IMG/VR virus record: IMGVR_UViG_3300028833_000098
Location: 1-64,000 of that record
Strand: one strand, 5' to 3'
Length of the DNA stretch: 64,000 nucleotides
DNA from: a virus
Taxonomy: Duplodnaviria > Caudoviricetes
A model generated the notes under the pieces. The model was not told where the DNA came from, searched no databases, and worked only from the letters and a program-made list of their open reading frames with translations. How positions within the stretch are numbered: position 1 is the stretch's first letter; every line of letters begins with the position of its first letter. Positions 20,200-54,600 of the stretch are shown in pieces. The translations under genes were made by a program, and so were the position numbers.

Positions 20200-20204
20200 T
20201 TATA

Positions 20205-21356: not shown

Positions 21357-21373
21357 AAATAATTCCTCCTTTA

Positions 21374-21658
21374 TTAATAATAATGGTTAAGATCCCTCTT
21401 TTTGATAATTTTATGTTTGAGCAGATAATCTATGACATCAGTACTATGTAATATGAATTGTTTGCTTGATGTACCTGCTACTGCACGTTTTTTCAAAGCT
21501 TCAAAGTATTCTTTATCCCAAGGCTTTTCTTTCTTTTTTATGTCATAATCAACAAAGAAATTGGGATTCTGTTTTTCATAGTATGATATAATATCATGAA
21601 CTTCTTCACGAGTGTGTCTGCCTTTAAATATGTCAATTATCAAAGAAGCGATTTTCAA
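21374..21658 (-). CDS. hypothetical protein
   Basis: TTG start with AAGGA RBS; KEKPWDKEYF motif. Confidence 0.55.
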   Translation of the reverse strand: MKIASLIIDIFKGRHTREEVHDIISYYEKQNPNFFVDYDIKKKEKPWDKEYFEALKKRAVAGTSSKQFILHSTDVIDYLLKHKIIKKRDLNHYY

Positions 21659-21708
21659 ATTATCATCCTTTTTATCAGGATAAGGATCTTCAGTTATTTT
21701 ATCTTTAA

Positions 21709-23031: not shown

Positions 23032-23061
23032 TATTTAATCACCTCTGCAATTATAAAAATA

Positions 23062-23088
23062 TCATAGCCGGGAAATCCCCGGCTATGA
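23062..23088 (-). terminator. hairpin/terminator
   Basis: TCATAGCCGGG-AAATC-CCCGGCTATGA. Confidence 0.65.
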
Positions 23089-23104
23089 CATGTCGGGTTA
23101 CATA

Positions 23105-23200
23105 TTACTCTTCTTCACCTTTACCGTTGGATAGTTCTTCCTCCATTTCAGGTGTCAGTTCAACAGAGTCAGTTGTTAAGTTTTTCTCCTTATCATCCAT
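23105..23200 (-). CDS. 31-aa acidic micro-protein
   Basis: Not in the ORF track; MDDKEKNLTTDSVELTPEMEEELSNGKGEEE*; RBS GAAGGAG; overlaps the upstream stop. Confidence 0.55.
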   Translation of the reverse strand: MDDKEKNLTTDSVELTPEMEEELSNGKGEEE

Positions 23201-33846: not shown

Positions 33847-34593
33847 ATGGATGCATCGGTAAAAAGAAAAAAGATTGAGGATATCGTTACACAAACATTG
33901 AAACTCATGGATCCAACGGGTATCAATGCAAAGAAGTATGAATCATTTTTCAAATCAATGAATGATGCTCAATTTGCAAAATGGATCAAAGAATTCCTTG
34001 CTGATGAGAAGAGCAACATACGTCTCGATATTGAAGAATTTGGTGATGGTTCAAGAACACTGAAATTCGAGAATATCGAAAAAGCTGCTGATAACCTCGG
34101 TATCAAATTATTCGAATATGTATATATTCCACATGTATCATCTAATCCGAACCGACCCATAAGGACCAAACAGCCAGTATTGGTTGGATACCTTAACGTC
34201 AAAAGAACTCAGCAGCTTGTTACCAAGAAAACTGGTTTGGCATTGAATGACGATGATCGTGATGATATGACAGGTGCAGTTAAAGGTGATGCTAAGGGAG
34301 GAACTACTACTGGTATTGAGAATGAACTTCTCGCCGGTGTTGGTGCCACGGACATCTTATCCGAGATAACAGGTGCTCGTGCTGATAACGTTGCCGAATA
34401 TGACAACATGCTCAGATCAATTGCAGAGACAGGCTCTGTTAGGTTAGCCGATATAAAGACTAATGCATATGATAAACCCACACTTCTTGCGGCGGATTTA
34501 TATTTTGCTGCAATGGGATTAAAAACAGACCTCATATCAGAATCTTATTATTCTGCTGAGAAGATAAAATCTGCATTTGAAGGTGAAACATAA
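33847..34593 (+). CDS. phage RNA polymerase beta-like C-terminal subunit (phiKZ gp149-type)
   Basis: PVLVGYLNVKRTQQ..RDDMTGAVKGDAKGG..IENELLAGVGA..LSEITGARADN aligns by eye with the RpoB C-terminal region. Confidence 0.78.
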   Translation: MDASVKRKKIEDIVTQTLKLMDPTGINAKKYESFFKSMNDAQFAKWIKEFLADEKSNIRLDIEEFGDGSRTLKFENIEKAADNLGIKLFEYVYIPHVSSNPNRPIRTKQPVLVGYLNVKRTQQLVTKKTGLALNDDDRDDMTGAVKGDAKGGTTTGIENELLAGVGATDILSEITGARADNVAEYDNMLRSIAETGSVRLADIKTNAYDKPTLLAADLYFAAMGLKTDLISESYYSAEKIKSAFEGET

Positions 34594-36365: not shown

Positions 36366-36380
36366 CAGGAGGTGATATTA

Positions 36381-37757
36381 GTGTTTGACATACTTACAGC
36401 CATTGATGCATCCCAGGATGAATCACAGGAAGCTGTTATGGAATCTCTTTTTACTACATACGACAAAGCATTGATGATTCTGGAATATCTTGATTCTGAT
36501 GACATAAGTTGTTTTTCAATATTTCAGGAAGCCGCAACGGATAATGACAAAGAGGTTTCTGGAAAAGATAAAGCAAAACAGGGTATTCTTAAAAGTATTT
36601 TTGGTATAATACCAAAACTCATTCAGCGTCTCAAAGATCTTTCGGCGAAAAAATTCGAAGCAAAGAAAATGAAAATGCTCGAAAAGAAAGCCAAGAAGTT
36701 GGGTGTTGATCTTAGCAAGTTATCAGAATCTGAAAAAGAAATGTTATATGCATCCCTCAATAGCCAATTGACGGAGTCTGACATAAATAAGATAATAACA
36801 AAACGTAAACTCATGAGTTTCGGTCTGAAAGCTGGGCTTGGTGCAATTGTTATTGGTGGATCAGCATATTACCTCAATAACAAAAAAGAGCTGGTCGTTG
36901 AGAAGGTTAATGACTTTAAAGGAAAGATCTATAAGAAACTTGATGAAGATGTTCTCAAGGGTGTTCGTGAAGCAACCGATGCTGCGGTTGAAAAAATATC
37001 GAACGTAGCTGATGCAGCAGCAGAAAAAATTAAATCTGCGGCAGATGCTTGTAAGAAAGCTGTTGAAACAGTTATCAATTTCTTAAAGAAACTATTTGAT
37101 GCATTTAAGAAATTTTTCAACATACATCTACTCAATTATGACAAAACAGAGGTTGAAAAAATTCTTTGTAAAATAGATCCAAACACAGGAACCCTTCATG
37201 TCACATTTGATACTGACACCATCAATGAATGGATCAAAGAAACAAAGACCTTTATATCAAACGCATCACAATTCATTGGACGTAAAGTCGTAAACGGCGA
37301 ACTTGAAAAGAACGTCAATGATGAGGGTAAGATGACACGTGGTGGTGCAATTGCCGCAGTTCAGAAAGAACATGATAGTGCTACTATCATGAAGGGCAAG
37401 AATGGAGCAACACTCGTATCGGATTATCGTAATCATCTTGAGAAAATTGCTTCCAAATTTAATGCAAAGGCCGAATATCATCCGATTGACGGCTTCATTA
37501 GCTATTCGTCAGAAATAATCGATGATCTAAATAAGGTATGTGATCTGGCGAAGAAACTAAGTGAAAAATATACCTCTATGGTAGATAATCCAAATAGAAA
37601 ACAGACGGATTACCTTGAAGCTGAGAAAGAGGTTGCAATGACTCTTCGTGGTATTCTCGATACCCAGATCCTTATAACAGAATCGGTTGATGCAATCAAT
37701 AATTACATCAACACTGTTTCTGAAATGACATCTGCTCTTGAAATCGGTTCTGAATGA
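36381..37757 (+). CDS. putative internal head/ejection protein (propeptide family)
   Basis: GTG start; DILTAID..VMES..YDK..FSIFQEA; one hydrophobic segment. Confidence 0.65.
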   Translation: MFDILTAIDASQDESQEAVMESLFTTYDKALMILEYLDSDDISCFSIFQEAATDNDKEVSGKDKAKQGILKSIFGIIPKLIQRLKDLSAKKFEAKKMKMLEKKAKKLGVDLSKLSESEKEMLYASLNSQLTESDINKIITKRKLMSFGLKAGLGAIVIGGSAYYLNNKKELVVEKVNDFKGKIYKKLDEDVLKGVREATDAAVEKISNVADAAAEKIKSAADACKKAVETVINFLKKLFDAFKKFFNIHLLNYDKTEVEKILCKIDPNTGTLHVTFDTDTINEWIKETKTFISNASQFIGRKVVNGELEKNVNDEGKMTRGGAIAAVQKEHDSATIMKGKNGATLVSDYRNHLEKIASKFNAKAEYHPIDGFISYSSEIIDDLNKVCDLAKKLSEKYTSMVDNPNRKQTDYLEAEKEVAMTLRGILDTQILITESVDAINNYINTVSEMTSALEIGSE

Positions 37758-37830
37758 TTTTACGATACGAAAAGTTAAAGCTTCAAATTAGAAGTTTATT
37801 AAAAAATTATACGAAAGGAATGAAATATTT

Positions 37831-39234
37831 ATGAACGAAATCAATGTTCGTAATGAAATTCTTGGTTCTATCGATAATGTCAACGATGTTACTATGGAAT
37901 CGACACTTGATGTAATGGGTTCATTGGCTCTTGCTTATGATAAAGCGGCTATGATAACCGAGTATTCAAATACTGAAGATCTTTCGATGTTCTCTATATT
38001 CCAGGAAGCTGAGGTAGCTGAGGCTAAGAAGGAACCTGGTCTGGGAATGAAGATACTGATGTTTATTCCTAATATCCTCAAGAAGATATGGGAATTCCTC
38101 AAGCAGGCATGGAACGGTGAAATTGTTCCTACTGCAAAGAAGGCTGCAAAGGAAGCAGAGAGTCTTTCTGATAAATTCAAAGGTCTTTTCAATAAGATCA
38201 TCGGTAAGGATGAGAGTTGGATAAGAGAGCATGCGAAAGAACTCGGTATAAGTGGTGCTATGCTTGCACTTGTTCTCGGCGTTGCTACATGGTTCAACAA
38301 GGATAACTTGAAGAAGCTCTTCACAGAATTTATTCAGGGTATCAGTGGTTTCTTCAAGAAAACGTCTGATAACTTCAAGCAGTATGGCGTAATATTCGAG
38401 ATGGTCGTATGGAATAAGTTTAAGACAAACATATCTTTCAAGGGCCTGAAGGATGCTATTACATCACTTCCTAAGTTCTTCAAGGATTGTGCAGCGTATC
38501 ATGAAAGATATATAAAGGGTGGTCTTCCTGGTTCAACCAACGGTGAGATTAAACAGATCGACTATAACAGAACTGATATCAGTGCTATGGAAACAGAACT
38601 CAATGCTCTGAATACAACATTCGACCAGATGACGAATGCTGATATCGTAGTCGCTGATACAGTTGAATACACTATTCCACAGGTAATCGACGGCATTACT
38701 GCAGATCTTGATCCTGATTCAGAAGAAGGTAAAGAGCTTATCGCTACAATGGAGAAGACAGCCAATGTAATGAAGCTCACTGATGAACAGATCAATGCTT
38801 TCTCACAGAATTTCCCTGCAAAGAGTAATATACAGAAGATTCTGTCCAAATTTGCTGGTTGGTTCCAGAAGGTTGGTGGCATGATCGCTGGTTGGTTCAG
38901 GTCTCTGAAGAAGATTTGTACCGACTTCGTCCAGAAGATCAAGGATGCTAGAGATATCGACAAGTCTCTCGATTACGGCAAATCTGACAGTGAGGAGCCT
39001 GCTACAAAGGATTCAAATCCTGGTAATGATAAAGCAGCTACTGATGACCTTACTTCGAATCTCGAAGAGGATAGTACTGCAACATACCCTGCCCAGGCTG
39101 ATGGTGCGGAGACACCTGAGGAAACGGGTCTTGAATCCACACAGGAAGAAATTCCTGAGGGTGAAGAAGCTGTTCAGGAGTCTGCAACAGAGGATGAAGC
39201 CGAAGCAGCTATCAATAATCACTGGTATAGATAA
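37831..39234 (+). CDS. putative internal head/ejection protein (propeptide family)
   Basis: NEILGSID..TMES..YDK..FSIFQEA; ILMFIPNILKKIWEFL; C-terminal VQESA. Confidence 0.68.
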   Translation: MNEINVRNEILGSIDNVNDVTMESTLDVMGSLALAYDKAAMITEYSNTEDLSMFSIFQEAEVAEAKKEPGLGMKILMFIPNILKKIWEFLKQAWNGEIVPTAKKAAKEAESLSDKFKGLFNKIIGKDESWIREHAKELGISGAMLALVLGVATWFNKDNLKKLFTEFIQGISGFFKKTSDNFKQYGVIFEMVVWNKFKTNISFKGLKDAITSLPKFFKDCAAYHERYIKGGLPGSTNGEIKQIDYNRTDISAMETELNALNTTFDQMTNADIVVADTVEYTIPQVIDGITADLDPDSEEGKELIATMEKTANVMKLTDEQINAFSQNFPAKSNIQKILSKFAGWFQKVGGMIAGWFRSLKKICTDFVQKIKDARDIDKSLDYGKSDSEEPATKDSNPGNDKAATDDLTSNLEEDSTATYPAQADGAETPEETGLESTQEEIPEGEEAVQESATEDEAEAAINNHWYR

Positions 39235-39247
39235 TATATCTAATGAG

Positions 39248-39274
39248 GAGATATCCCCATTTCGGGGATATCTC
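39248..39274 (+). terminator. hairpin/terminator
   Basis: GAGATATCCCC-ATTTC-GGGGATATCTC. Confidence 0.65.
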
Positions 39275-39306
39275 TTTCTATTATACAAACAAAGGAGGTA
39301 TGATTG

Positions 39307-40515
39307 ATGATTTCAAAAGAAATTATTGATTCAATCGATGAAGTTGTCATCGAATCAAATATCGATGTATTTGAATCATTATGTGCATCATATGACAAAG
39401 CATATGATATTCTTGAATACTGTTCTGATGACGATGTTGATTTCGGCATGTTTTCTATCATTCAGGAGTCAACCATTGAAAAGGGTGATACTGAATCAAA
39501 TGCAGACATTAAGAAGAAAGATAAAAAGCAAGGCAATATTCTTTCCAAGATGCTTGACGCTATTATCAGTTTCTTCAAAATGATCGGTTCAGCAATTGCC
39601 TCTTTCTTCAGGAAAGCAAAGGAAGGCATTTCTGATAAACTCAGAAAACTTTCTAAGAAATCTGATAAAGAATGCAGCGATGTTCAGGATAAGATCGATA
39701 ATGGTCCTGCTGGGGACAAGCTCGACAAGGCAGCTTCTTCTTTTGAAGAAAAAGCTGAAACAAAAGAAGCGCTTACTGATAACAGTGACGAAGAAAAGTC
39801 TGATGATGGTGAAAAGAAGCCTGATAACAAGACAAAGATACTTGTAAAGGAAAAGAAGATCAAAACACATATCAAGTTTGATGCTTGGATAAAATTCCTT
39901 GAATATAGTTATGCATATACAGAGCGTGTCGTTAACAAAGCAACAGTTCTGACAAAGAGTGATGTCAGGTCTGCAATTGTCAATAGACCAACTCGAGCAA
40001 TTCAGAAGAATAATAAGCCTCTCAAAGACGAAATCGAAAAAGTCCAAGGTGGAGTTGCTGATCTGGTAGGTGACATCAAAGGTGGTTCGGATGTTCGCAA
40101 GGCCCGTCTAAAGAAGCAAACACTTTTCTCAAAGTATTGTAAGAAATATCCCGTATCTGAAGTGGCAGATAGCATAGATAAGATAGATGATCTTCTCAAC
40201 AAGAATATCGAATCATCCAAGAATGCTTTGGAGAAATTCAAAAAGGTTAAGGTTGTTCTCGATAAGGGAAATAATAATTCCACATTCAATAAGCTCGTGA
40301 AGGATATTACCAAGATCCATACAGAGCTTGCCAATATCGGTTCAGTAACTCTGGCTCTCACGAAGTATATTGGTCTCGAGCTCGGTCTTTATGATTCTAT
40401 GCTTGCAATCATCATTCCTATGTTCGATAAGGAAATGGCTGATAAGAAGAAAGCCGAAGAGGAAGCAAATCCAACATTAAATGTCAATGTGAGAACCAAA
40501 AACAATGAGGAATAA
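39307..40515 (+). CDS. putative internal head/ejection protein (propeptide family)
   Basis: KEIIDSID..IES..VFES..YDK..FSIIQES. Confidence 0.65.
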   Translation: MISKEIIDSIDEVVIESNIDVFESLCASYDKAYDILEYCSDDDVDFGMFSIIQESTIEKGDTESNADIKKKDKKQGNILSKMLDAIISFFKMIGSAIASFFRKAKEGISDKLRKLSKKSDKECSDVQDKIDNGPAGDKLDKAASSFEEKAETKEALTDNSDEEKSDDGEKKPDNKTKILVKEKKIKTHIKFDAWIKFLEYSYAYTERVVNKATVLTKSDVRSAIVNRPTRAIQKNNKPLKDEIEKVQGGVADLVGDIKGGSDVRKARLKKQTLFSKYCKKYPVSEVADSIDKIDDLLNKNIESSKNALEKFKKVKVVLDKGNNNSTFNKLVKDITKIHTELANIGSVTLALTKYIGLELGLYDSMLAIIIPMFDKEMADKKKAEEEANPTLNVNVRTKNNEE

Positions 40516-40553
40516 ATTTCCTCATATCAAACTATATGAAAGGAAGAACTTGT

Positions 40554-41390
40554 ATGCCTATGAAGAGTAATCAGACTAACAAGTATGAGACTGCCTGTTT
40601 TATACAGGAAGCCCCTGTTATGTCAGAAATGAATGTTAATGGATATACAATCAAGAAATCTGCAGAAGGTCTTCCGTACTGTGAGTTCGAATCTACTCTG
40701 ATGACATTTAACGAATACAATCGTATGAGACGTCGTTATGATGCAAATAACATTGATACTGTTATTGCATCTGATGAAAGAATCAACGATCTATTGAGAC
40801 GTCATCAGTGGAGAGGTGAATGGAACCATCCAAATCCGGACATCAAGGGTCAACAGTATTCTGATATCCGTATGACTATTCCTGAACCAATAAGAACTTC
40901 ACACTTTATTACGAAACCCCGTCTTGAAGGTGACAGATATCGTGGACATATTATCACACATCCTCGTACAGAGTGTGGTAGAGCTGTTGCATCAGAAATC
41001 ATTGATATCGGTTCAATCCCATGCTTTTCTGTTCGTCTTCTTGGAAACATGATACCCAATGCTCCTGTAAACCAGCCTAACATGAGAGTGTCAAAGGTTA
41101 TCACATTTGATATGGTTGACTTTCCGTCACATGCTGGTGCACAGGCTGACATTACTCCAACACCATATCAGGAAGGTGCTGTCATCTTCTTGAAGGAATT
41201 GGCGAAGTACTGTTGTGAGCAGGATGAGAATATGAAGGTTGTATGCGAATCATTCCAGTTCTCTACAGATGAGATCATGGGAATTCACAATGGTAACATT
41301 GTATTCCAGGAAGCAGATACAAACTCAAGAATTCATATTCCTCTCAAGGGCGATATTCGTAAGGAAGCACTGTCAATAATACTCGGATGA
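40554..41390 (+). CDS. prohead (head maturation) protease, T4 gp21/phiKZ gp175-like
   Basis: NRMRRRY, GEWNHP, FSVRLLG, ITFDMVDFPSH; lies upstream of the capsid gene. Confidence 0.85.
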   Translation: MPMKSNQTNKYETACFIQEAPVMSEMNVNGYTIKKSAEGLPYCEFESTLMTFNEYNRMRRRYDANNIDTVIASDERINDLLRRHQWRGEWNHPNPDIKGQQYSDIRMTIPEPIRTSHFITKPRLEGDRYRGHIITHPRTECGRAVASEIIDIGSIPCFSVRLLGNMIPNAPVNQPNMRVSKVITFDMVDFPSHAGAQADITPTPYQEGAVIFLKELAKYCCEQDENMKVVCESFQFSTDEIMGIHNGNIVFQEADTNSRIHIPLKGDIRKEALSIILG

Positions 41391-41404
41391 TGGAGGATGG
41401 ATAA

Positions 41405-44400
41405 ATGGATGAAAATAAAATTATAATCAAACAATCTTATTTCACCAATATCCAGACCGCTATCAACTGCATCAATGAGTTTTTCTCTTCACAGTTCAAG
41501 AATAAGAATTTCCCTGTTCTCGATGAGGGAATGGATCTTGATCCAACTGTGGAGAGAATTATCTCTCGTCTGAATGTGGTTGATTCATCTTGGGTATTTG
41601 ATGAAAATAAGTTTCAGGATATGATGAATCTCATTAATGGTGAGATTGATAAAATCGATCCTGAGAATGGAGTCTATGGTACAATCATGGATTCTAATAA
41701 TGAAGCACTCATACAGGCTGTTGAATCCTATATCGGTTTCAAGTTCCTGAATATGATAGCTGATAACTTCGAGGCTTTCACTAAATTCATCAATGGTATT
41801 TATACATTCGAATTATTCTACAAGACAGCTGAATATGCTGATGTACTGGAAGTCTTTGATAAGGTTATTCCTTTTGACGAAGTACCCGGTCTTGATCTTG
41901 AAGAAAAGTTCTTCGATGATGCTGCATATGTAGAGGGTCTTATTCAGAACGAGAATGTTTCGTTACCTGATGCTCTCGACTTTGATAGTCAGAAGGAAAG
42001 AATGGAAGCCCGTCAGAATCTTGATGGATATGAAATCCTTGTAGATGATACAGTTCAGGAAGCTGCAGAGGTTAATTATTTTATCAATGATAAACCCCAG
42101 AACATGAAGTATTCTGATTCCCAGAAAAAGTTCATGATCTCAAACGAATTCGAAAGTGCTGTCAATGATCTTGTATCAGGTCTTCGTAAATGTGATACAA
42201 CAGACGATCTCCTCAAGTATTTCCAGGATGCAAATACAATTCCTAAGTTGGTAGATCGTATGAGTAGAACGACTATTCCGTATATACTCGTCAAGGTTCT
42301 TACTAATCCTAAGAAGACACCTGCTGATCTGTCGGCTAAGTTGAAGAAGTATACTGATTCTTATGCATCAATTCTGTCACAGAATAACGGTGCTCGTAGA
42401 TTTGAAAACTATGATCTCTTCTCTACTTTCAAATCTGATAAGGAAGGTACTATCAAATTCATTGAGGACTTCTGCAAACTCAAATTGATAAATGATGCTG
42501 ATGCATCTATTGCGAATAACACATTACTTACAATATTCAATATATTCGATTCCAGAATATATTTGGATCTTGCATATAATGTTGCTCCTGAATCCATCAC
42601 AAAAGAAAAGATGGAGGATGCATTCGTTAAGGAAATCCGTGGCAGGATCAATAAGAACTCTCGTTCTAAGACAGCATATACAGAAGAGGCTCCCAAGGAG
42701 ACTGACGAAACAGGTACTCCAACCGAGACTAAACCTGATACAACAGAAACTGTCAATGAGTATGTATCAACTGAACTGAAAAAGTTCGGTACAATGACTC
42801 ATAATGATATGAGATACTGTGATCAATTCTCAGCTCTTATTGAGAAGGAAATTGATACCATTGATGATCGCATGTTCAATGAGCATGTTTCACCTATACT
42901 TGTTGACGAATATATCGGCGAGTCTTATGATGTAGAATCTCTTGAAGCATTCTATGCAGAGGCTTCTGTTCCGCAGCGTCGTATAAGACTTCAGTCTGCA
43001 ATCAATTCACTGATGCATGATTGCGAGAAAATTGTTTCAATGGATAAACAGCATCGTTGGAATAACAACACATTCTCACGTCAGTACAGAACAACGACTT
43101 CAATGTTCTTGTTCTTCTTGTGTCCCAACATCAATGGTTCTTCCGAAGAGCATACCAATATAAAGCAGCTCCATCATTGGCTGGGTAAGGCTGTTAACGG
43201 TAAAGCAGGTAACTTCACATCTGAACAGATGTCAACTCTATCTCAACTGAGAGATCTCGTTTCAGACATGTGGGGTACTGTTAAGCTGTTCTGGTTAAAT
43301 CCCAGGAACTGGTTTAAGAACATTAATCTTACACAGAATACAGGTATCCAGAAACGTGTAAGAAAGATGGCTGATATTGCCAAACAGATAGTTGCTCTCA
43401 AGGGTGAACTTGGATTTATTAATGACGAAATGTTCGTTGATGAATATGCATTCATGAAACAGTTCTCCGATGAAGTTATCATGGAAGCAACTACTGAAGA
43501 GAACCATAACAGACTCAACAAATCTGTTGGTTTGTTAATGGATGACATGGGTAGAATTGTAAAAATGTCCAAGGAAAATAAATGGACAAACAATTCATGC
43601 CTTTCGATGTTCAGAGCCGGTGAGACACTCAAGAATGTAAAAGAAGCGAAGAAGTATGTTGACCGTGCTATTATCGGTTCAGGTGGTGTCAAAGTAAAAG
43701 ACACTGATACTCTCAAAGAGCTTCTGATCAAGATTAAGGATCTTCTTTCTACCGTAAATGGTATGAAACTCAATCCTTTCATTCATAAGAATATAAAGGA
43801 ATCAGGTCCTGCAAAGAAAGTATCAGTAATAGCAAATGACATCTTTAAAATGAAACCTTCTCTTGGCTTCTTAAAGGATGCTCCTGTAAAGGAAAGATCC
43901 GAAGATAAAAATGACGAGAAGGAAGAAAAAACAGTTGAAGAATCAACTGTTATGGATTTTGAAGAATTCATGGTTGTCATGGAAGCTGCTCCTGAAGATG
44001 GAAGTATTCCAAACTACATGAAGAACAGAATAGCTCTATCAGATAATATGAAGACACAAACAGTTCCTGTTGATCTTCCTGAAGGAGTTCCTCAGAATCC
44101 TATTCCGGATCTTACTCAATCAATTGATACAAAGCTTTCTACCGATAGCAATGATATCAATGATATGCTTGGTTCAGGTTACACACCTGCAAACAAGAAA
44201 GAAGAAGCAAAGACAGTCATCAATATCACAAACAACTATACGAATTCTTTCAATAAGGATTCATATAATACCAGCACAACCACTGATAGTTCTACTGGTA
44301 AGGTGACTAACACAACAACCACGAATACGAATTCTCACAATGATTCTTCTTCAAACAAAGATTCCTCTAACAATAAAAGAACCACATCATCAAATTCAGT

Positions 44401-45115
44401 AAAAACTGATAAATCTGGTTCTAACAATAATAATAATAGCAGCACATCTGCTGAGCTAAAGGAATCGAAGAAGAGTGAAACTTTCTCGAATGGTAAAACC
44501 GTTCAAGAGATGTTCGCATTCTTGGAATCTGCGGCGCCCCAATCAGATAGAAGTGATGCTGGAAAACCTCCTAAGGAGGATTCTTTAACTAAGGCTATGG
44601 ATCGTGACAGGAAAACGTTACCTGCTCAACAGGGAGCGAAGAAAGCTACGACCAAAGCACTTAATACCGGCAAGGCTGTCCTAAAACCCGTTTCTCGAAC
44701 AAAGCAGTGGATCAACAATGTTGTGAACTCTGTAATCAAAAGAGACGAAGATCAAGTCAAGGCCGAGATGTTCGATAATCCTAGCTATCGTTCTGCTGTA
44801 CTCAAAGCAGCTAGACTTGCTACCAAGCTTGGAATGACTGGTGTTTTAACTGCATTAAGTCCGTACCTGGGAGTCGGATATGTGGGAGTTCAGGGCCTTA
44901 AGGCTATGGATAAACATAGACTCAAGGATGAAATGGCTAATGAGCTTATGACTGAACTTGAAATAACAGATCAGAAAATAAGAGATCTTAGCAATTCAAA
45001 TTCCCCTGAAGCATTAAAACAAAAGTATGAACTGATGAGAATTCGTCAGAAGCTTATTGAGAAGATTCCTCAAACAAAGAGATCTTTGATTAAGCATCCA
45101 AGTGATTTGGCATAA
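41405..45115 (+). CDS. large modular virion protein / putative polyprotein
   Basis: 1236 aa; internal tandem duplication; multiple xxE|A/S sites; C-terminal hydrophobic hairpin and coiled coil. Confidence 0.6.
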   Translation: MDENKIIIKQSYFTNIQTAINCINEFFSSQFKNKNFPVLDEGMDLDPTVERIISRLNVVDSSWVFDENKFQDMMNLINGEIDKIDPENGVYGTIMDSNNEALIQAVESYIGFKFLNMIADNFEAFTKFINGIYTFELFYKTAEYADVLEVFDKVIPFDEVPGLDLEEKFFDDAAYVEGLIQNENVSLPDALDFDSQKERMEARQNLDGYEILVDDTVQEAAEVNYFINDKPQNMKYSDSQKKFMISNEFESAVNDLVSGLRKCDTTDDLLKYFQDANTIPKLVDRMSRTTIPYILVKVLTNPKKTPADLSAKLKKYTDSYASILSQNNGARRFENYDLFSTFKSDKEGTIKFIEDFCKLKLINDADASIANNTLLTIFNIFDSRIYLDLAYNVAPESITKEKMEDAFVKEIRGRINKNSRSKTAYTEEAPKETDETGTPTETKPDTTETVNEYVSTELKKFGTMTHNDMRYCDQFSALIEKEIDTIDDRMFNEHVSPILVDEYIGESYDVESLEAFYAEASVPQRRIRLQSAINSLMHDCEKIVSMDKQHRWNNNTFSRQYRTTTSMFLFFLCPNINGSSEEHTNIKQLHHWLGKAVNGKAGNFTSEQMSTLSQLRDLVSDMWGTVKLFWLNPRNWFKNINLTQNTGIQKRVRKMADIAKQIVALKGELGFINDEMFVDEYAFMKQFSDEVIMEATTEENHNRLNKSVGLLMDDMGRIVKMSKENKWTNNSCLSMFRAGETLKNVKEAKKYVDRAIIGSGGVKVKDTDTLKELLIKIKDLLSTVNGMKLNPFIHKNIKESGPAKKVSVIANDIFKMKPSLGFLKDAPVKERSEDKNDEKEEKTVEESTVMDFEEFMVVMEAAPEDGSIPNYMKNRIALSDNMKTQTVPVDLPEGVPQNPIPDLTQSIDTKLSTDSNDINDMLGSGYTPANKKEEAKTVINITNNYTNSFNKDSYNTSTTTDSSTGKVTNTTTTNTNSHNDSSSNKDSSNNKRTTSSNSVKTDKSGSNNNNNSSTSAELKESKKSETFSNGKTVQEMFAFLESAAPQSDRSDAGKPPKEDSLTKAMDRDRKTLPAQQGAKKATTKALNTGKAVLKPVSRTKQWINNVVNSVIKRDEDQVKAEMFDNPSYRSAVLKAARLATKLGMTGVLTALSPYLGVGYVGVQGLKAMDKHRLKDEMANELMTELEITDQKIRDLSNSNSPEALKQKYELMRIRQKLIEKIPQTKRSLIKHPSDLA

Positions 45116-45136
45116 CACAAAGGGGGGATATAACCA

Positions 45137-45745
45137 GTGCCAAACAAAGATCTGTTCTTCATGGTCATGGAGGCTGATGGAGATGAGATGCAAGCATTCG
45201 ATGAGAATGCTCCTGCACCAGAAGATGCTGGTGCTGATGAGACTACCCCTGCTGCTACTGAAGAACCAAGTGGTGGCGAAGGTGATGTCGAAGCACCACC
45301 AGAAATGAATGAGGACGACTTTGGAATGGGTGGTCTGAATGACATGGATAGTGGTGAATCTTCAGAAGGCGAAGAGACTTCTGGTGAAGGTGGTGGTGAC
45401 GAAGAAGCTGATAAACAGGATACAAAGCTTTCAACTAAAGCGAATGATATTTTGAATCAGTCGTTATACACTAAATTCGTCAATCGTAATAGAGAGATAG
45501 AGGACATCATAACAAGTATCAAAGATACTATACCTCTACTCCCAAATGATATCATTAAATCTAATGATAAGTCAATGAACCAACTGAAGGCTGCCCTTCA
45601 AAAAGGACAAGAATACGTTATCAATGATTTCGTAGATTCTGGTTATGGTGAGAACTTATTGTTCTACCAAAAACTGGACAGCTTATATGTACTTCTACTG
45701 AATCGAATTGATACTAATCTGAGAAAAATTGACGTAGGTCAATAA
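45137..45745 (+). CDS. acidic scaffold-like head protein
   Basis: MVMEA site, acidic N-terminal half, directly upstream of the capsid gene. Confidence 0.5.
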   Translation: MPNKDLFFMVMEADGDEMQAFDENAPAPEDAGADETTPAATEEPSGGEGDVEAPPEMNEDDFGMGGLNDMDSGESSEGEETSGEGGGDEEADKQDTKLSTKANDILNQSLYTKFVNRNREIEDIITSIKDTIPLLPNDIIKSNDKSMNQLKAALQKGQEYVINDFVDSGYGENLLFYQKLDSLYVLLLNRIDTNLRKIDVGQ

Positions 45746-45793
45746 TGAAAGACAATATCTTTCGAAATTTAAATCAAAAGGAGTGTTTTATTC

Positions 45794-48031
45794 ATGGCAT
45801 ACAATGTATCAAATATGAACAATGGCCACGGATCATGGTTCCAGGAACAGATGAACATGATTAACAACTCATCTGCTGCAGAGCTGGATTCACTTAGCGA
45901 CACTTTTGCTAAGAATTTTCAGGAAACAGTTACTGATATCGCCAACACATATAACGGCATCAACGTAATGAGAGATGCCAAGAAGATGATGGATAACCCC
46001 GAGATCATGCAGGAATACAAGGTACAGCTTCTTGATCCTATTCTTGAGGAAATCCGTACAGCTGCTGCTGATCAGACAGACCCTGGTGAGAAGTTCCACC
46101 TTGAGAGCGTTGCAGATCAGCTCGAGTCTTCATGGAATGAAAGCCAGAAGAGCTTCCTGGTACAGGAGTCTTATAACACAGCTACATATCTTCCTCTTTC
46201 AACTCTCGACTTCCCTGCTCTGATCAAGCAGTACATCAGATTCCTTGGTAAGGATATCATCCCCGTACAGACTGCTTCTTCAACAAACATCGAGCAGCGT
46301 ATATTCGTTAAGTATCTCGTAAACAACCAGACTGGTGAAGAGTATGAGGTACCTAAGGTATACTGGCAGAAGGAAGCTGACGGCACACCTACATGGAAGA
46401 AGCTCTGGAATGCTGGTAAGGGCGTAAGGATCAACGATAAGGATCCTATCATGCTTGCTGACATAGCTGCTGCTAAGAACAAGAAGTATGATATGTTCAA
46501 TCACCTTCTCCAGGACAACGGTGAGGCATATCCTGAACAGGGTCAGGCTGGTGCATTCGAGAAGACACTGAGAACTCGTCTCTCTTATGACTTCAACATC
46601 CAGTACGTTGCACTCGATGGCTCAACAGAGGATAGTTATTCAGCTATCACATTCTCTGGTGCAGGTACAACAGAGTCTCCTTATTCTCCTGCATATGAGT
46701 CTGGTAAGTACTACACAAAGAGCGGCGAAGAATATACCGCTGTAACTGGTGATGATGCTCCTGCAGACTGGGGTACAGATACAACTGGTAAGTACTACTC
46801 AAAGACTCCTGGTCAGACTGGCGTTAAGAAGGTTAAGCTCCCTGGTGCTGGTATCGCTATTGATATCCAGACTGGTGGTGTATTCCTTAACGGTGACTTC
46901 GCAGATGCTAAGCTTCCCGTTGTTGATCCTAATACAAATATTCCTACAGGTGAAGTTACAGATGCTATCAGCGATATGCTTTCTGGTCGTGTTGACTTCG
47001 TTAAGGGCACACTGACAGCTTCTTCATGCGGCACAATCGTAGGTCTCTATGTTTCTGGTCACATCTCAAACGAGACAAACCTCAGAACAATCGGCTTCAG
47101 AGAGTATCCTCTCATCCGTAAGTTCCTGATCTCCGATGGTTGCAGATTCCAGCTTCCTTTCACAGTTGAAGACTTTGCTGAGGCAAACGCTGCACTCAAC
47201 TTCAACCTCTACAACAGACTCGTTCAGGAGCTCGTTGTTAACCAGGAAATGTTCGAGGATGAGTCAATCCTTGAGTACCTCGACGAGCAGTTCGAGATGT
47301 ATGATGGTTACGATTCAGACGTATTCGCTCTCGAGAGCTATACACATACTGAGTTCTGTGACCTTGATCCTACTTCCATTTCACCTACATTCGCAGGCGA
47401 TCCTTGGGAGTACAGAACCAATGCTATCCACAACGCAATCAACTCTGTAATCTATGAGCTCTGCGATCGTGGTAAGCTTGAGAACCTTGGCTTCGTTATC
47501 TATGCTAACCCCAAGGCTTGTCGTCTCCTCAATAAGTTCGTAACATGGACTGTTAAGAAGAGCACAGAAATCGGTGGTGTTCAGATGAACCACAGCTTCG
47601 GTATCCTTACTGACAGCGATCTCCCGATCCGTGTTGTTGCTTCTAACCGTGTTGACGCTTACACACTCATCCCTGCATACCAGAAGGATGAGGAGGGCAA
47701 TCCTCTTCCTGAGGGCACAATGTCTAAGGAGTACTTCTTCAAGATCGTTGCTTATCCGATGGATAAGTTCCACATCTCCTACAAGCACCTCCGTTTCGCA
47801 CGTCACCTCACAAATTCTCCTGAGAATGCTGGTTACGCTGATATCAACAATCCTGGTGGTCAGGCAGTTCTTATCACAACCTCTGCTCAGTACAAGACAA
47901 TCTCTGTACAGGGTATTCAGGGTCGTGTTATCTGCAAGAACACTGTTCTCGTTCCTGATATCAAGGCTGGTGTTACAACTCCTTCTAACATCACAGACGG
48001 TGGAGAAGACGGCGGCAACAGCATGCCTTAA
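45794..48031 (+). CDS. major capsid protein
   Basis: 745 aa; strong high-expression codon bias; helical N-domain ending LVQES; FPALIKQYIRFLGKDIIPVQ resembles the gp23-type motif; follows the protease; strong terminator after. Confidence 0.8.
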   Translation: MAYNVSNMNNGHGSWFQEQMNMINNSSAAELDSLSDTFAKNFQETVTDIANTYNGINVMRDAKKMMDNPEIMQEYKVQLLDPILEEIRTAAADQTDPGEKFHLESVADQLESSWNESQKSFLVQESYNTATYLPLSTLDFPALIKQYIRFLGKDIIPVQTASSTNIEQRIFVKYLVNNQTGEEYEVPKVYWQKEADGTPTWKKLWNAGKGVRINDKDPIMLADIAAAKNKKYDMFNHLLQDNGEAYPEQGQAGAFEKTLRTRLSYDFNIQYVALDGSTEDSYSAITFSGAGTTESPYSPAYESGKYYTKSGEEYTAVTGDDAPADWGTDTTGKYYSKTPGQTGVKKVKLPGAGIAIDIQTGGVFLNGDFADAKLPVVDPNTNIPTGEVTDAISDMLSGRVDFVKGTLTASSCGTIVGLYVSGHISNETNLRTIGFREYPLIRKFLISDGCRFQLPFTVEDFAEANAALNFNLYNRLVQELVVNQEMFEDESILEYLDEQFEMYDGYDSDVFALESYTHTEFCDLDPTSISPTFAGDPWEYRTNAIHNAINSVIYELCDRGKLENLGFVIYANPKACRLLNKFVTWTVKKSTEIGGVQMNHSFGILTDSDLPIRVVASNRVDAYTLIPAYQKDEEGNPLPEGTMSKEYFFKIVAYPMDKFHISYKHLRFARHLTNSPENAGYADINNPGGQAVLITTSAQYKTISVQGIQGRVICKNTVLVPDIKAGVTTPSNITDGGEDGGNSMP

Positions 48032-48062
48032 TCGTACATAAAGTACATGAATAATTAAAGTG

Positions 48063-48092
48063 GACGGGGGCAACAGCCCCCGTCTATTATTT
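48063..48092. terminator. bidirectional terminator
   Basis: GACGGGGGC-AACA-GCCCCCGTC-TATTATTTT. Confidence 0.8.
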
Positions 48093-48628
48093 TACACTGT
48101 TTCTAAAAAATTCTCTATCATTGCTAAACACATTTTAATTACATATTCAGGTTCTATATCAGAATATGTTTCTAAGGTATTATCTATAATACTTCGCGTG
48201 GAATCCCTTCTTGCGATTTTAAGATTCTTTGATAATAAAACCTCCATATTGATATTTTCTAATATGGTTTCTCTCATTGCTTTTGATTCTTCAGGTGAAG
48301 GTAATCTAAACTCTTTTAAAAGATTTTTTGTTTTAATAACATTATCAAGTTTCTTTTCAACGTTGTCGATACCACTGGATAACGATCCTATGTTCTTATT
48401 GATTATGGTAAGAGCCTTCTTATAATCATTATCCATATTGAATAATTTATCATCTGAATTATCTTGGTTTACTTTCAATTGGTATACTGAGAAAGTCAAT
48501 GATGATATTATGTCATTATTTTCTTTTTTCATTCTTAAAATAATGACGAAGAGAACTGATGTCAATATCAGTAAAATGGATATGGCGACCAGCATGATTA
48601 TTAATAAACATAAACAATTTGTAGACAT
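48092..48628 (-). CDS. N-terminally anchored coiled-coil membrane protein
   Basis: Long TM segment then coiled coil; RBS AAGGAGG; very AT-rich. Confidence 0.65.
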   Translation of the reverse strand: MSTNCLCLLIIMLVAISILLILTSVLFVIILRMKKENNDIISSLTFSVYQLKVNQDNSDDKLFNMDNDYKKALTIINKNIGSLSSGIDNVEKKLDNVIKTKNLLKEFRLPSPEESKAMRETILENINMEVLLSKNLKIARRDSTRSIIDNTLETYSDIEPEYVIKMCLAMIENFLETV

Positions 48629-48672
48629 AATGGATCCTCCTTAAAAATATAAAAGATTGGAAGTGTTATTAA

Positions 48673-50256
48673 ATGAACAGTACTGTTATGAATACTATTA
48701 AAGCTATGATCGAACATAAGAAATATTCTGTTATAACCGAATATGCGAATGTTGTTCATGGAAAGAATAACTTATTTGTTTCTGAATATGGTGGAAACAA
48801 TGTAAGACTATACAAGGACAACGATAACAATGTACGAGTTCTCTGTCCTAAGAACATGGATACTGTACAGGAAGGTTACTTGGCAAAAGCTATTGCCGAT
48901 GGATCTGTGTTTGATGATGCTGATGATATTGATAAGAATGCTTCAGTTATCGAGAGAACTTCAATCCCTTATGATGCAATGATCAATGTTGGTAAAGAAC
49001 CTCCTAAGAACCTTAAACCCATGATCGCTATCGTAGTTGGTAGAATGGGTGATGATGGTTCATTTAGTGTTACTGATGCTGACAGAACCAACGGCGTTAA
49101 TTTCGTTAAGGATGTAACTGCTGCTAATGCAAATGGTGATTCTATAAATGGTGTAGTTGACAATTATCTCGAAAAGGATAAGGAAGGTTTCTATACACCT
49201 GATATCGGTAAAAATATATCAGGACTCAATAATGAGCTTGATGATGTAAATGATACTGATCCCGGCGATGTTGTATCTGATGATGATACAGTTGATTCAT
49301 ACGATGATTATGATATGGATGAATTCGAACGTGATCCTGATGCGCCTGATGAGGAACCCAGCAATCCTGAAGAGGATGGAGTAAACGATGTTCCTCCTGC
49401 CGTTGATCCTGATGCTGATTCAGCATCTGATGCAGAAGATGATGCAGATGAGACAGATAAGACAGAAGAAGTTGAAGAGTGTGGTGACACTAATACTGTT
49501 GAAGAATGCGGTAATAACTGCGTTCCCACAACTACAACTGAATCTGATGAAACTGGTGAGGAAACATTGAGTGCATCAATGGACAATAATGAAGAGACCG
49601 AACCTGCTGCACCTGAGGAAGATCCTATAGCTACAGATGTTGCTAATGGAATAATCGCAAGATATAAACGTGTATCCGAGTGTGGTAATAACTGTGTTCC
49701 CACTGGTAAGGCGGTTGTTCAGGAAGATGATATCGACAATGCTGAAACACCTTCTGATCCTGAAATAGATACACCAACTGATTCTGCAGTTGAACCTACA
49801 ACAGAACCTGCTAGTGATGTTGTATCTGAAGATGGCGCACCAACAGAGGAAACCACCGCTGATGGTTCAGTTAACAAATCACCAATGCCTATGTCGGCTG
49901 AGACAAAAACTATCGCAAACAACCAGATGCATCAGGAAGGTTTCTTAACAAAGAAGCCCAAAAAGCTAAAACCCATCGGAAGAGACGTGGTAGCATACAT
50001 AACTTGCGAGATGAATGATATACATTCAGCAAATGATCAAGCTATGTTAGCCGGTTATACTTGCTCTAAGATAGAACTGGTAGATTGGTACATCACCGTA
50101 CTTGATACTCAGGATCCTAAGTATATCGTACCTCATACACGTCAATATCTCGTAACTATTAAAGCACAGCTCGAAAGCCTGCTTGCACAGATATTGAAGA
50201 TTCGTCCTATCAATAGGACTGATCAGATTTGGCGTGTTAACTACCCAACAGTATAA
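48673..50256 (+). CDS. putative virion protein with a long acidic linker
   Basis: Folded-looking N- and C-domains; D/E-rich middle; VQEG, VQED and HQEG sites. Confidence 0.6.
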   Translation: MNSTVMNTIKAMIEHKKYSVITEYANVVHGKNNLFVSEYGGNNVRLYKDNDNNVRVLCPKNMDTVQEGYLAKAIADGSVFDDADDIDKNASVIERTSIPYDAMINVGKEPPKNLKPMIAIVVGRMGDDGSFSVTDADRTNGVNFVKDVTAANANGDSINGVVDNYLEKDKEGFYTPDIGKNISGLNNELDDVNDTDPGDVVSDDDTVDSYDDYDMDEFERDPDAPDEEPSNPEEDGVNDVPPAVDPDADSASDAEDDADETDKTEEVEECGDTNTVEECGNNCVPTTTTESDETGEETLSASMDNNEETEPAAPEEDPIATDVANGIIARYKRVSECGNNCVPTGKAVVQEDDIDNAETPSDPEIDTPTDSAVEPTTEPASDVVSEDGAPTEETTADGSVNKSPMPMSAETKTIANNQMHQEGFLTKKPKKLKPIGRDVVAYITCEMNDIHSANDQAMLAGYTCSKIELVDWYITVLDTQDPKYIVPHTRQYLVTIKAQLESLLAQILKIRPINRTDQIWRVNYPTV

Positions 50257-51658: not shown

Positions 51659-51692
51659 TAAGCCTCATCTATATAATAAGGAGGTGAATGTA

Positions 51693-54600
51693 ATGGCCCG
51701 TAACTTAGTTACACAGACATTAAATATTCTCCAAGGTGGCGTCAAAGAAGCTGGTAAAGATTATTTTTCTAATATGATATCTTTCTACAATGATGCCAAA
51801 AATGTTAAGAATACACTGATAAATTCCGGTACGGATGTATCAGATACGTTTGCTCGTTTAAAGAGAACCAATGTTACTAAAGCTATTTCGGATTGGTTCT
51901 ACCAGGAAGAATCTTCTTCTGAGATGGAGCTCAATGGTAACACAGATGAATTCGATCCCGGATTTAAAGGTTCTGATTCTGATAGTCCAAAATTAGACGG
52001 TGAATCAAGTAAGCCATCTGGTCTTACTGTTGATGCTATGATGAATATCTCCAATAAGCAAACAAATGCTATATTGAAGGTAGGTCGTCGTCAGAACGAA
52101 CAGTCAGTGGCTAACACCGCAGAAATCATTTCTACAATCGATACTCGTTCTGCAGAAATGATTACTTCTTTGAATAATATCAACAAGACACTGTTGGGAA
52201 TCAGTAGCCGTCTTGATAAGATCATCGAATTACAGGCTGTTCCACTCACAGATCAAAAGGAAATTGATAAGGGTGGTCTCTATCAGGATGGTAATCTATC
52301 GCTGATGAGAATCTTTGAAGCTACAAAACAAAATGTTTTGACAACCGGACCAATGTCATTATTGACAACTGGTATCGATATGCTTCGTTCAGGAGCATTG
52401 ACACCAACGGCTCTTGCTGGTATTGGCATCAAAGGCCTTGCTGGTAAGATAAAGGTTAACGGTAAATCATTCGATGATTGGGGTAATGCATTCAATGAGT
52501 TGATTGGAACTGCAACCCAAACGGCAATGAATGAAATGATCAATTCCAATTTCTTCCAAAAATACATTGGTAAGATAACTGGATTTGAAGGTAATAAGGA
52601 TTATGGAACGATAGTCCCAAATCATTATGATAATAAACGTGCCGTGTTTGACGGAATGACAAGACAATCTATTGTCAATGTAATTCCGGAAATGCTTGCT
52701 AAGATCAATGAGTCATTATCAGGTCAATCATATTCACTTGATAGTCGTGGTAAATGGGTAGCTGGTCCTGCGAAGAATGAGTTCAATGAAGTAACGCGTG
52801 CTTCATTTGGTAGCTCTGGTCTCAAGGATAATACTATAAATTCAATTTCCAATGCTGGTGTACAGAGTATTGGAAAGAAGATACCAACGGCTGATATTGA
52901 AAAAGCTGCAAAGGCTCTCACGATGACCATCGTTATGGATCAACACGCTAAGGGTGATCGTGCATTTACAATATCACAACTCAAGGGTGATTTAACAAAC
53001 CAGGTCATTCAGGCATGTGAAGTATTGTCAATGACAGGTGGAGATCCAAAATACTGGGCAAAGGTTTGTAATTCAATCATTATACAACTTTCATCTGGTA
53101 TGATGGATGCTGCAGGTTTTGTTCGTAATGTAAATGACTCTGTTCAAAGGATGATAAATGAAGCTACTCAGTTTGCTCAGTCTGGTAAACAGAATGCTTC
53201 ACAAGCAACAACGTTGTCATTCAATATGGCAGCTAACCAGTTCTTGGAACAATATGCACCTAAGGCAGAAACCGCCAAGATTGCTGAATCACATAACAAG
53301 GGTACTCTTATCGATGGTAAAAACATCAGAGTTGATGAAAGCAATAAGGTTGGTAAATTCTCTGTTAATCAGTACATCGGAGGTATCTTCTATTTACTCA
53401 ATAGAGGTATCAATGTTCGTATTGATAAAGACGGTTCTAAATACGATGGTATTAATCTTGCTGATGTAAAACCTGACTCTGTACCATATGTATCTGATGA
53501 TACGTTTGGCAAGATGGTCAAAGGTATGCTTGCTGGCAATAAAAATGCCGTTAGTGATGCCGTTAAAGAAGAGATGGGTGTTGCTAAGAAGGAAAAAGGA
53601 TTCATCAGTAAGATACTCGATAATCCTGCAATGCTTTTCAATTCATTGACGAATATGTTCACTGGAGGTAGTGTAAATTTCCAGGGATTGAAAGACAAAG
53701 CCAAGAGTATACTTGGTGAAGAAAGATATAATGCCATCGCTGATAAGCTCTCTGGTGTTAAAGATCGCATTACTCATGATGATAGATATATTGCAGCTAA
53801 ACTTGCAGCAGAAGAAACTGTTGAAAAGTTAAAGAACAAGGGCAATGAGTTATATGATAAATTTGGTCATACACGTATTGGAAATAATATGATGTATGCA
53901 AAGGATTCATTAAAACTCAAGGCTGCTGAAGATACCATCAATCATATGAAAATTGATGATGAGATGGATCAAGAAGCTGTGTCAATCGCAAAGTATTATA
54001 CAAGCAGAGGTATGCTTGATGAAGCAGCTTCGGCAGTATCAGGTATAAAGAATGAGAATGTAAAAACTGCATTTTTGAACTTTGTAAGTATTCAGAAGAA
54101 GCGTTTACTTGGCCAACAAGCATTAGCCGAAGGAGAAACTCCTGATATCGGATCAATATTAATTGAAAAAGATATCAAGGAGGGTAAGGATGGCAAGCCA
54201 GGTACAACCAATTCATTGTTATTCAAAATACTTGGTATAGTTGGTAAGATTGGTAAGTTCGTTGGTAATATGGCAACTCGTGGTATTACCAACATCTTCT
54301 ATGGCTTGAAGTCAATGGGTCAAGCTTTGTTCGGTTATGAAGACTTTGATCCTGTTAAAGGTATCAAGTACAAGAACAAAGGTATCTTTAGAAATCTTAC
54401 AACTGAACTTGTCGCAGCTCAATGGAGAACAGCGAAGCATATAGTCAATGGCATCAGTAATCGAGTATTTGGTGAAGGTGATGCCGAATTCGTTGACGGA
54501 AAACTTGTTAATACCAAAAAGAAAACTCTTCATGAAAGATACAATGATAAAATCGACAAACTCGCCAGAACCAAAAATATTGTGGATGAAAACGGTTTTG

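Follow-up and report, generated by a model that had tools for sequence, protein, structure and literature searches.

Head proteins of phage T4 are cut by the protease gp21, and those of phiKZ and SPN3US by S80 proteases, in each case after the Glu of an x-x-E motif (PMC9026906, PMC10052503, PMC5694885); both this cleavage and the loading of cargo by removable targeting sequences are established (PMC9026906, PMC5694885, PMC10052503). Self-processing at the C-terminus is common to T4 gp21, phiKZ gp175 and SPN3US gp245 (PMC9026906, PMC10052503), gp21 carries an additional motif copy near its N-terminus (PMC9026906), and every known gp245 cut in SPN3US bar the protease's own removes an N-terminal propeptide (PMC10052503). 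A scaffold protein has been confirmed for none of the giant phages (PMC5694885). Iyer et al. (2017) described packaged multi-domain 'polyvalent proteins', which they likened to polyproteins and for which they proposed release by embedded peptidases (PMC5512222). Here, we analyzed a 64,000-nt window of viral DNA (positions 1 to 64,000 of IMG/VR virus record IMGVR_UViG_3300028833_000098) and, within it, the gene for P0001, a 140-kDa protein encoded next to a head-maturation protease. The source record spans 109.7 kb at an estimated completeness of 41%, which gives a phage genome of ~260 kb—a size for which we class the phage as jumbo—and closer relatives were found on contigs of up to 277-289 kb.

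P0001 has a modular architecture with a protease-type motif, hydrophobic-(Q/M/x)-Glu plus a small residue, at each module boundary; these motifs are conserved, and relatives exchange whole cassettes at the joints. From the sequence comparisons and structure models laid out below, we suggest with moderate confidence that the gene encodes a head-interior precursor, which the prohead protease would cut at the module boundaries. A previous reading of the window, made from the letters and their translations (hereafter, the sequence-only reading), had proposed a phage polyprotein, an interpretation that sequence and models partly support. It had placed the gene directly after the prohead protease, and the open frame of 1236 residues at 41405-45115 indeed begins 14 nt beyond the protease gene. 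The protease itself matched Pfam Peptidase_S80 (E = 3.6e-6; 26.8 bits, exceeding the cut-off of 23.4 bits) and the head maturation protease family phrog_3014 (2.3e-12). The two genes, the modules of P0001 and its candidate cleavage sites are listed here in order, with isoelectric points (pI) and AlphaFold2 confidence values (predicted local distance difference test, pLDDT); the bar in a motif follows the P1 Glu.

40536-41390, plus strand: prohead (head-maturation) protease, 284 aa, Pfam Peptidase_S80, phrog_3014
41405-45115, plus strand: P0001, modular head protein, 1236 aa, 140 kDa, open frame
41405-42061, plus strand: module 1 (aa 1-219), acidic (pI 4.05), helical, AlphaFold2 pLDDT 80-95
42050-42064, plus strand: candidate site 1, TVQE|A (E219), in the pLDDT<50 segment 216-221
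42062-42961, plus strand: module 2 (aa 220-519), acidic (pI 4.8), helical
42950-42964, plus strand: candidate site 2, FYAE|A (E519), in the pLDDT<50 segment 506-520
42962-43486, plus strand: repeat unit A (aa 520-694), basic (pI 9.4), helical bundle
43475-43489, plus strand: candidate site 3, VIME|A (E694), in the pLDDT<50 segment 679-695
43487-43984, plus strand: repeat unit B (aa 695-860), pI 8.5, helical bundle followed by an acidic tail
43973-43987, plus strand: candidate site 4, VVME|A (E860), in the pLDDT<50 segment 830-866
43985-44527, plus strand: module 5 (aa 861-1041), including an N/S/T-rich disordered tract
44498-44530, plus strand: candidate site 5, the tandem pair TVQE|M (E1035) and FLE|S (E1041), in a short helix (aa 1033-1041) followed by low-confidence residues
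44528-45112, plus strand: C-terminal domain (aa 1042-1236; 195 aa), basic (pI 9.9), AlphaFold2 pLDDT 80-97

Modules 1 and 2 make up an acidic N block, after which come a variable cassette region, the N/S/T-rich tract and the basic, helical C-terminal domain. Module 1, as part of this conserved block, is kept in ~45 clusters of homologs, while module 2 holds a disordered acidic/Thr linker (aa 425-440), then a conserved TVxE|YV motif (E452), and ends with a conserved YIGE|S (E506). The tract, previously noted as a linker ahead of a final hydrophobic-hairpin/coiled-coil module, consists to 68% of N, S and T over aa 940-1020 and is disordered over ~aa 942-1019 (nt 44228-44461); the module that follows it is helical in the AlphaFold2 model, being composed of long hairpins in which residues 1142-1165 are moderately hydrophobic. 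This C-terminal domain is the most widely conserved part of P0001 and occupies the C-terminal position in every homolog. The model of residues 1-900, computed from a 43-sequence alignment, reached a mean pLDDT of 81, with segments below 50 at residues 216-221, 425-440, 506-520, 575-582, 641-643, 679-695, 830-866 and 875-900. A model of the C block (aa 830-1236) displayed disorder at 830-859 and 942-1019, the short helix at 1033-1041 and confident long helical hairpins at 1060-1225. All models are helical, with long hairpins in the C-terminal domain, a helical and elongated shape shared with phage scaffolding proteins.

The five sites quoted in the sequence-only reading are all present, its numbers referring to the P1' residues and the P1 Glu being 219, 519, 694, 860 and 1041. 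It had placed them at domain boundaries, and such boundaries are also predicted there by the models: E219, E519, E694 and E860 all fall inside pLDDT<50 linkers, which account for 14% of the residues of the 1-900 model. The probability that all four sites fall in such linkers by chance is ~4e-4 from the fraction of residues and ~0.01 if one takes into account that the linkers hold 24 of the model's 76 Glu. Sites 1-4 retain their P1 Glu in each of the 24 closest sequences that has the flanking module, and the P2 residue varies. Aligned homologs retain Glu at site 1 in 41 of 42 cases, together with a hydrophobic P3 (36/42) and a small P1' residue (39/42), and over the 519 residues of the N block only four Glu—E219, E452, E482 and E506—reach a conservation of 75% or more in the 43-sequence alignment. 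Site 2 preserves its P1 Glu and an aromatic or aliphatic P3 in 19/19 relatives with unit A, its P2 being variable (A, E, Q, M, I), and site 3 recurs as (V/Y/F)(I/F)(M/Q)E|AT in 22/22 relatives with unit B. Site 4, whose E860 is kept in 32 of 38 sequences, immediately precedes a conserved G-x-IP-x-YMK-x-RI motif that we used as the anchor of the C block; a hydrophobic-(Q/M)-E sequence stands within 12 aa upstream of this anchor in 32/51 clusters against an expected 4%, and the remainder mostly have hydrophobic-x-E.

At site 5, the sequence-only reading had named FLE|S; another motif, TVQE|M, precedes it by 6 residues. In 68 aligned relatives, both Glu are present in 37, only E1041 in 21 and only E1035 in 10, while none lacks both, so that the two look redundant in the alignment. 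E1035 by itself was rejected as the true site, since E1041 is the better conserved (58/68 versus 47/68). Two further conserved Glu of the N block deserve mention in their own right: E452 (42758-42763; TVxE|YV), which directly follows the acidic/Thr linker at aa 425-440 and is Glu in 41/43 sequences, and E506 (42917-42925; YIGE|S), which lies 13 aa ahead of site 2 and is kept in 33/41. By their sequence context, both are possible extra or back-up cut sites.

Two of the modules are copies of one another. Segments 520-694 and 695-~825 had been described as tandem repeats, and residues 520-694 and 695-860 are indeed a tandem duplication (BLASTP of 521-695 against 696-861: E = 6e-14, with 27% identity in an alignment of 147 columns). 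By Smith-Waterman, the pair scored 129-132 as opposed to a shuffle mean of 30 (standard deviation 5), corresponding to z = 18-20, and no other pair of segments within P0001 exceeded z = 2. The repeats were also said to start at the sites: in both copies, the alignment opens 8 residues past the unit's own site, and repeat and site are therefore in register. The further proposal that the unit of duplication is the segment between two sites is supported by four relatives (P0167-P0170) that lack exactly unit A; a near relative of theirs, P0159, has both units (among 16 closer relatives).

An exhaustive phmmer search returned P0001 homologs in 229 clusters (E ≤ 1e-3; clusters counted at 50% identity), making the family at least 229 clusters large. 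Some 50 full-length relatives of 860-1556 aa have in common the N block (aa 1 to ~510) and the C block (aa ~864 to 1236). In ~20 clusters, the two blocks stand 0-8 aa apart; in others, ~150-670 aa. If an insert is absent, the blocks are linked by a single motif, as in YNIIQE|QETGDIPDYM; where there is one, it is unrelated to the other inserts and nearly always bounded by hydrophobic-Q-E. Among the types that we encountered are one or two copies of the helical repeat unit, a SUKH-like module, a hydrophobic module and a module with an HExxH motif, besides others. The SUKH-like module gave weak matches to the SMI1/KNR4 (SUKH) family of Pfam that span the full profile (E = 0.0056 and 0.026); since a profile of the proteins bearing this cassette found no match among PDB sequences, the assignment rests solely on these two sub-threshold matches.

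The sequence-only reading had asked whether homologs gain or lose whole inter-site modules, which they do: besides the loss of unit A and the cassettes of 0 to ~670 aa described above, P0004 (54-56% identical; contig L003, with the gene order of the window) keeps all five site positions and has an extra cassette of ~295 aa (aa 853-1147; L003 8557-9441). This cassette contains HEEGH, an HExxH motif, and is bounded by VFQE|S and VIME|Q, the VFQE|S site being an addition that accompanies the module. In a protein atlas, its leads were Peptidase_M48 and M78 (0.87-0.89, weak). The second pattern raised there, modules encoded as separate genes, was seen in no case, and no shorter protein matched the repeat region. 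Neither the modules of P0001 nor the HExxH, SUKH-like or other cassettes of its relatives had a BLAST-level match among the open reading frames (ORFs) elsewhere on the 109.7-kb contig. P0056 (199 aa) was considered as a stand-alone module and rejected as a contig-end fragment.

The motif at the joints recurs throughout the head genes of this phage as hydrophobic-(Q/M)-Glu followed by A, G or S. In strict form ([VILFYMTC][VILFYM][QM]E[AGS]), it has 18 copies in the 33,906 residues encoded on the contig, eleven of which lie within 70 residues of an N-terminus, all of them inside two gene blocks, 19168-24683 (minus strand) and 36372-50256 (plus strand). Three of the seven deep, non-N-terminal copies are in P0001, where 0.12 would be expected (P = 0.0006 by shuffling). 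The genes around the protease and P0001 are the following:

36372-37757, 37831-39234 and 39304-40515, plus strand: three tandem leader genes, upstream of the protease gene
45137-45745, plus strand: conserved 202-aa protein, between the P0001 gene and the capsid gene
45794-48031, plus strand: major capsid protein (phrog_20655 major head protein, 9.2e-11)

The three leader genes (36372-40515) start with a common N-terminal leader of ~55 aa that ends in FSIFQE|A, FSIFQE|A and FSIIQE|S, respectively, at aa 53-59, after which the sequences diverge; we took these ends as the reference motif for the protease of the phage. The leader looks like a loading tag akin to the capsid-targeting sequence (CTS) of T4, used alongside the putative polyprotein in one phage. 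Copies in the protease are FIQE|A (aa 25) and VFQE|A (aa 259), the capsid protein has a candidate maturation site, LVQE|S, at aa 125 ahead of its mature part, and the next gene after that of the capsid protein (48673-50256) contains TVQE|G at aa 67.

This distribution bears on the reading in which P0001 is a large multidomain virion protein that is never cut, its linker motifs being kept for folding, flexibility or binding. Phage N4 virion RNA polymerase and some polyvalent proteins, which are packaged unprocessed, offer precedents (PMC5512222). We nonetheless regard it as very improbable: the motif also stands at leader ends, on the protease and on the capsid protein, all of them places that are regularly cleaved in T4, phiKZ and SPN3US; the Glu and the hydrophobic P3 are the conserved residues of disordered linkers that otherwise vary; each added cassette comes with an added motif; and the tandem Glu of site 5 are never both lost.

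Further copies of the motif were seen elsewhere in the window. Three genes at 19168-24683 on the minus strand have strict copies at a distance of 49-61 residues from the N-terminus (VVME|A, YIME|G, and IFQE|A plus VVME|G) and, going by these sequences, probably encode further head proteins with cleavable leaders. An 805-aa ORF at 26946-29363 (minus strand) has a strict YIME|A deep inside, at aa 499, and by its sequence may be another two-part precursor. A 2702-aa ORF downstream of the head genes (51684-59792, plus strand) contains several loose copies and no strict one.

Beyond the homologs of P0001 proper, we identified a second family of at least 45 clusters with a different N block and a common C-terminal domain (hhalign E = 4.9e-41); hhalign found no relationship between the two N blocks, the C-terminal domain alone being aligned. 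Members of the second family carry other cargo between linkers that bear hydrophobic-x-E|S/A motifs, including a NUDIX hydrolase (Pfam, 6e-14 to 3.5e-13) in P0103 and in the following two loci:

L008 1885-5421: P0101, NUDIX-bearing distant member
L007 37-4425: P0123, NUDIX-bearing distant member

Cargo in the distant family is placed after an N/S/T/H-rich tract, whereas in the P0001 family it precedes the tract. The distant-family gene is followed by an acidic protein of ~200 aa and then by a capsid protein of the same PHROG as that of the window, and the N-terminal site of the ~200-aa protein shifts in step, reading MVME|ADGDE in near-family members and FLYE|APGDD in those of the distant family. 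In L008, the gene arrangement corresponds to that of the window but comes without an adjacent protease.

In a bolder reading, which we put forward tentatively as possible but less likely than not, the C-terminal domain of P0001 would be the general prohead-loading (scaffold-anchoring) handle of a large superfamily of jumbo-phage proteins, and whatever protein occupies the cassette slot between two protease motifs would be cut free by the prohead protease and injected together with the DNA as an early anti-host or anti-defence effector. The plug-in cargo may then comprise the NUDIX hydrolase, the zincin, the SUKH-like immunity domain and the helical repeat units, each loaded in fixed stoichiometry with the scaffold. 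If true, this would constitute a second, polyprotein-based solution to cargo loading beside the capsid-targeting sequence of T4, and it would identify the long-sought scaffold of a giant-phage group.

The main rival to a cargo-bearing polyprotein is a pure scaffold or core protein, cut merely for clearance before DNA packaging, in which the middle part tunes scaffold size or valency and no mature fragment is functional. Several features fit: the gene sits in the classical scaffold slot between protease and capsid protein, the C-terminal domain is a long helical hairpin, and the N block is acidic and helical, as is T4 gp22 (PMC5694885). The ~20 homolog clusters without a cassette fit as well, and from them it follows that the constant ends are sufficient alone. 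Against this, no more than 5-7 conserved sites are spread over the 1236 aa of P0001, and the pieces between them are folded and of 19-34 kDa, whereas T4 gp22 yields short fragments that exit the head (PMC5694885), and the repeat units and the C-terminal domain are basic (pI 8.5-9.9), like DNA-associated internal proteins. The cassette slot of relatives holds NUDIX hydrolase, zincin-like HExxH and SUKH-like modules, which are hard to explain if discarded; given such enzyme cargo, for which the SUKH and zincin leads are weak, a role as discarded scaffold makes little sense. We therefore deem the pure scaffold unlikely.

Enzymatic cassettes also invite comparison with polyvalent proteins in the sense of Iyer et al. 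(2017), in which case P0001 would be injected whole and processed in the host by an embedded or a host peptidase. A multi-module architecture among phage head genes is what such proteins have, and the NUDIX and HExxH modules of relatives are both known among polyvalent-protein domains (PMC5512222). Yet Pfam revealed in P0001 no recognised polyvalent or effector domain and no embedded processing peptidase (MPTase or similar), the HExxH module is found in just 2 of ~50 clusters (P0004 and P0006) while the sites are in all, and the boundary motif is common to the capsid protein and the protease, pointing to the prohead protease as the enzyme. This origin of the fragments appears very improbable to us.

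In the precursor reading that we favor, P0001 would be assembled into the prohead core through its conserved ends, whereupon the neighbouring S80-type protease would cut after E219, E519, E694, E860 and E1035 and/or E1041, releasing ~6 pieces of 19-34 kDa in fixed 1:1 ratios. More speculatively, the basic pieces—the two repeat units and the C-terminal domain—would probably be retained with the DNA, as proteins that are either internal or ejected, the acidic pieces of the N block (modules 1 and 2) might serve as scaffold or core and then be displaced, and the C-terminal domain might act as the loading handle. In evolution, the site-bearing linkers would have served as joints at which cassettes were duplicated, lost or replaced, leaving the constant ends undisturbed.

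A number of points weigh against this precursor. The case for a polyprotein rests wholly on sequences and models from an uncultured phage, and several stable products from one chain would be unusual, as the gp245 cuts of SPN3US remove N-terminal propeptides. The conserved acidic linkers could have been kept for reasons other than cleavage. Site 2, with Ala at P2, departs from the strict motif, and E1041 stands at the end of a short confident helix and not in a clear linker. The P values for conservation (for instance, for the 32/51 clusters) overstate the evidence because homologs and clusters are phylogenetically non-independent. Finally, the window's own cassettes, the repeat units, reveal no function that can be recognised and had no match in Pfam, PHROG, PDB, the protein atlas or fold searches.

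Other searches likewise returned no assignment. P0001 had no match in Pfam (E ≤ 0.01) or PHROG and chance matches only among PDB sequences, and its gene matched none of 50,697 phage records (INPHARED; megablast and tblastn), so that there is no cultured relative to compare. For repeat unit A, the protein atlas provided no usable match. Foldseek searches of the 900-residue model against BFVD and PDB yielded nothing at E ≤ 0.001, merely generic vinculin/talin-like helical bundles, and VIA-align of the C block recovered only helical hairpins of a generic kind, whose Z of 8-9 does not exceed the noise for helical models. With respect to characterised scaffolds, there was no sequence match in Pfam, PHROG or PDB, and the fold searches gave generic helical hairpins only.

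The capsid gene lies two genes downstream of P0001, and its product has a sole match among known phages, at 21% identity, in the Staphylococcus jumbo phage SA1. The order protease, modular gene, ~200-aa protein, capsid protein is common to the window and to L003. A protein of ~200 aa stands between the modular gene and the capsid gene in every case, the distant family included. Its site at aa 12-15 (MVME|A at aa 12 in the 202-aa protein of the window) is followed by an extremely acidic middle rich in Pro and Gly and by a C-terminus that is helical and conserved; this protein is itself a candidate for the true scaffold or core protein. Its loci in relatives are:

L003 10660-11271: ~200-aa protein
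L008 5461-6084: ~200-aa protein
L007 4465-5040: ~200-aa protein
L005 686-1291: ~200-aa protein

Elsewhere in the window, a 248-aa ORF at 33847-34593 (plus strand) matches phrog_3233 'RNA polymerase beta subunit' (7.4e-45), which is suggestive of a split multisubunit RNA polymerase of the phage, of the type found in other jumbo phages.

Giant phages carry inside the head dozens of proteins, which they select and load. The architecture of the P0001 family—constant ends, a cassette slot and protease-marked joints—is readable from its genes and predicts which proteins are loaded, in which ratios and where they are cut. It further suggests cassette swapping at linker joints as a route by which phages could exchange injected effectors, and it would lend itself naturally as a template when foreign proteins are to be loaded into large capsids. 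Our literature searches turned up no account of a protein in scaffold position whose exchangeable cassettes are flanked by the motifs of a prohead protease.

Compared with the S80 and T4 systems, the window's protease belongs to the S80 family and is predicted here to recognise a three-residue Glu motif, which is present on the capsid protein, the protease's own ends and internal head proteins, as in those phages (PMC9026906, PMC10052503). P0001 shares with the substrates of these proteases a gene location beside the protease and accessible motifs. With its hydrophobic P3 and mostly Q or M at P2, the motif is nearer to that of T4 gp21 (LIE-9 in gp21, PMC9026906) than to the A-x-E/S-x-E of SPN3US and phiKZ (PMC5694885). 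Whereas known substrates lose N-terminal propeptides (PMC10052503), P0001 has its 5-7 sites deep in the chain, at domain boundaries.

The CTS cargo of T4 (IPI-III, Alt) is comparable in that a constant element, removed by the protease, leads variable cargo into the prohead, and the set of cargo proteins varies between related phages (PMC9026906); the phage analyzed here also has the three tandem CTS-like genes with their common ~55-aa leader. In contrast to T4, with one short N-terminal tag per gene, P0001 holds several cargo modules between large constant N and C blocks, has no short leader (its first site being at aa 219) and has a 195-aa C-terminal domain as its most conserved element. Polyvalent proteins resemble it as long multi-module proteins among head genes that are predicted to be packaged and released as separate domains, but their release is proposed to rely on embedded peptidases (PMC5512222), while the junctions of P0001 carry the prohead protease motif. 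The likeness to eukaryotic-virus polyproteins drawn by the sequence-only reading holds in operational terms only: the protease is a separate upstream gene and not part of the polypeptide, and the analogy had already been drawn by Iyer et al. 2017 (PMC5512222).

Like the phage scaffolds T4 gp22 and P22 gp8, P0001 is encoded between the protease and the capsid protein and has helical, elongated constant parts; unlike them, it is 4-5 times larger and possesses natural, exchangeable cassettes. With its cargo N-terminal to a conserved C-terminal helical domain, it resembles the engineered scaffold-cargo fusions of P22.

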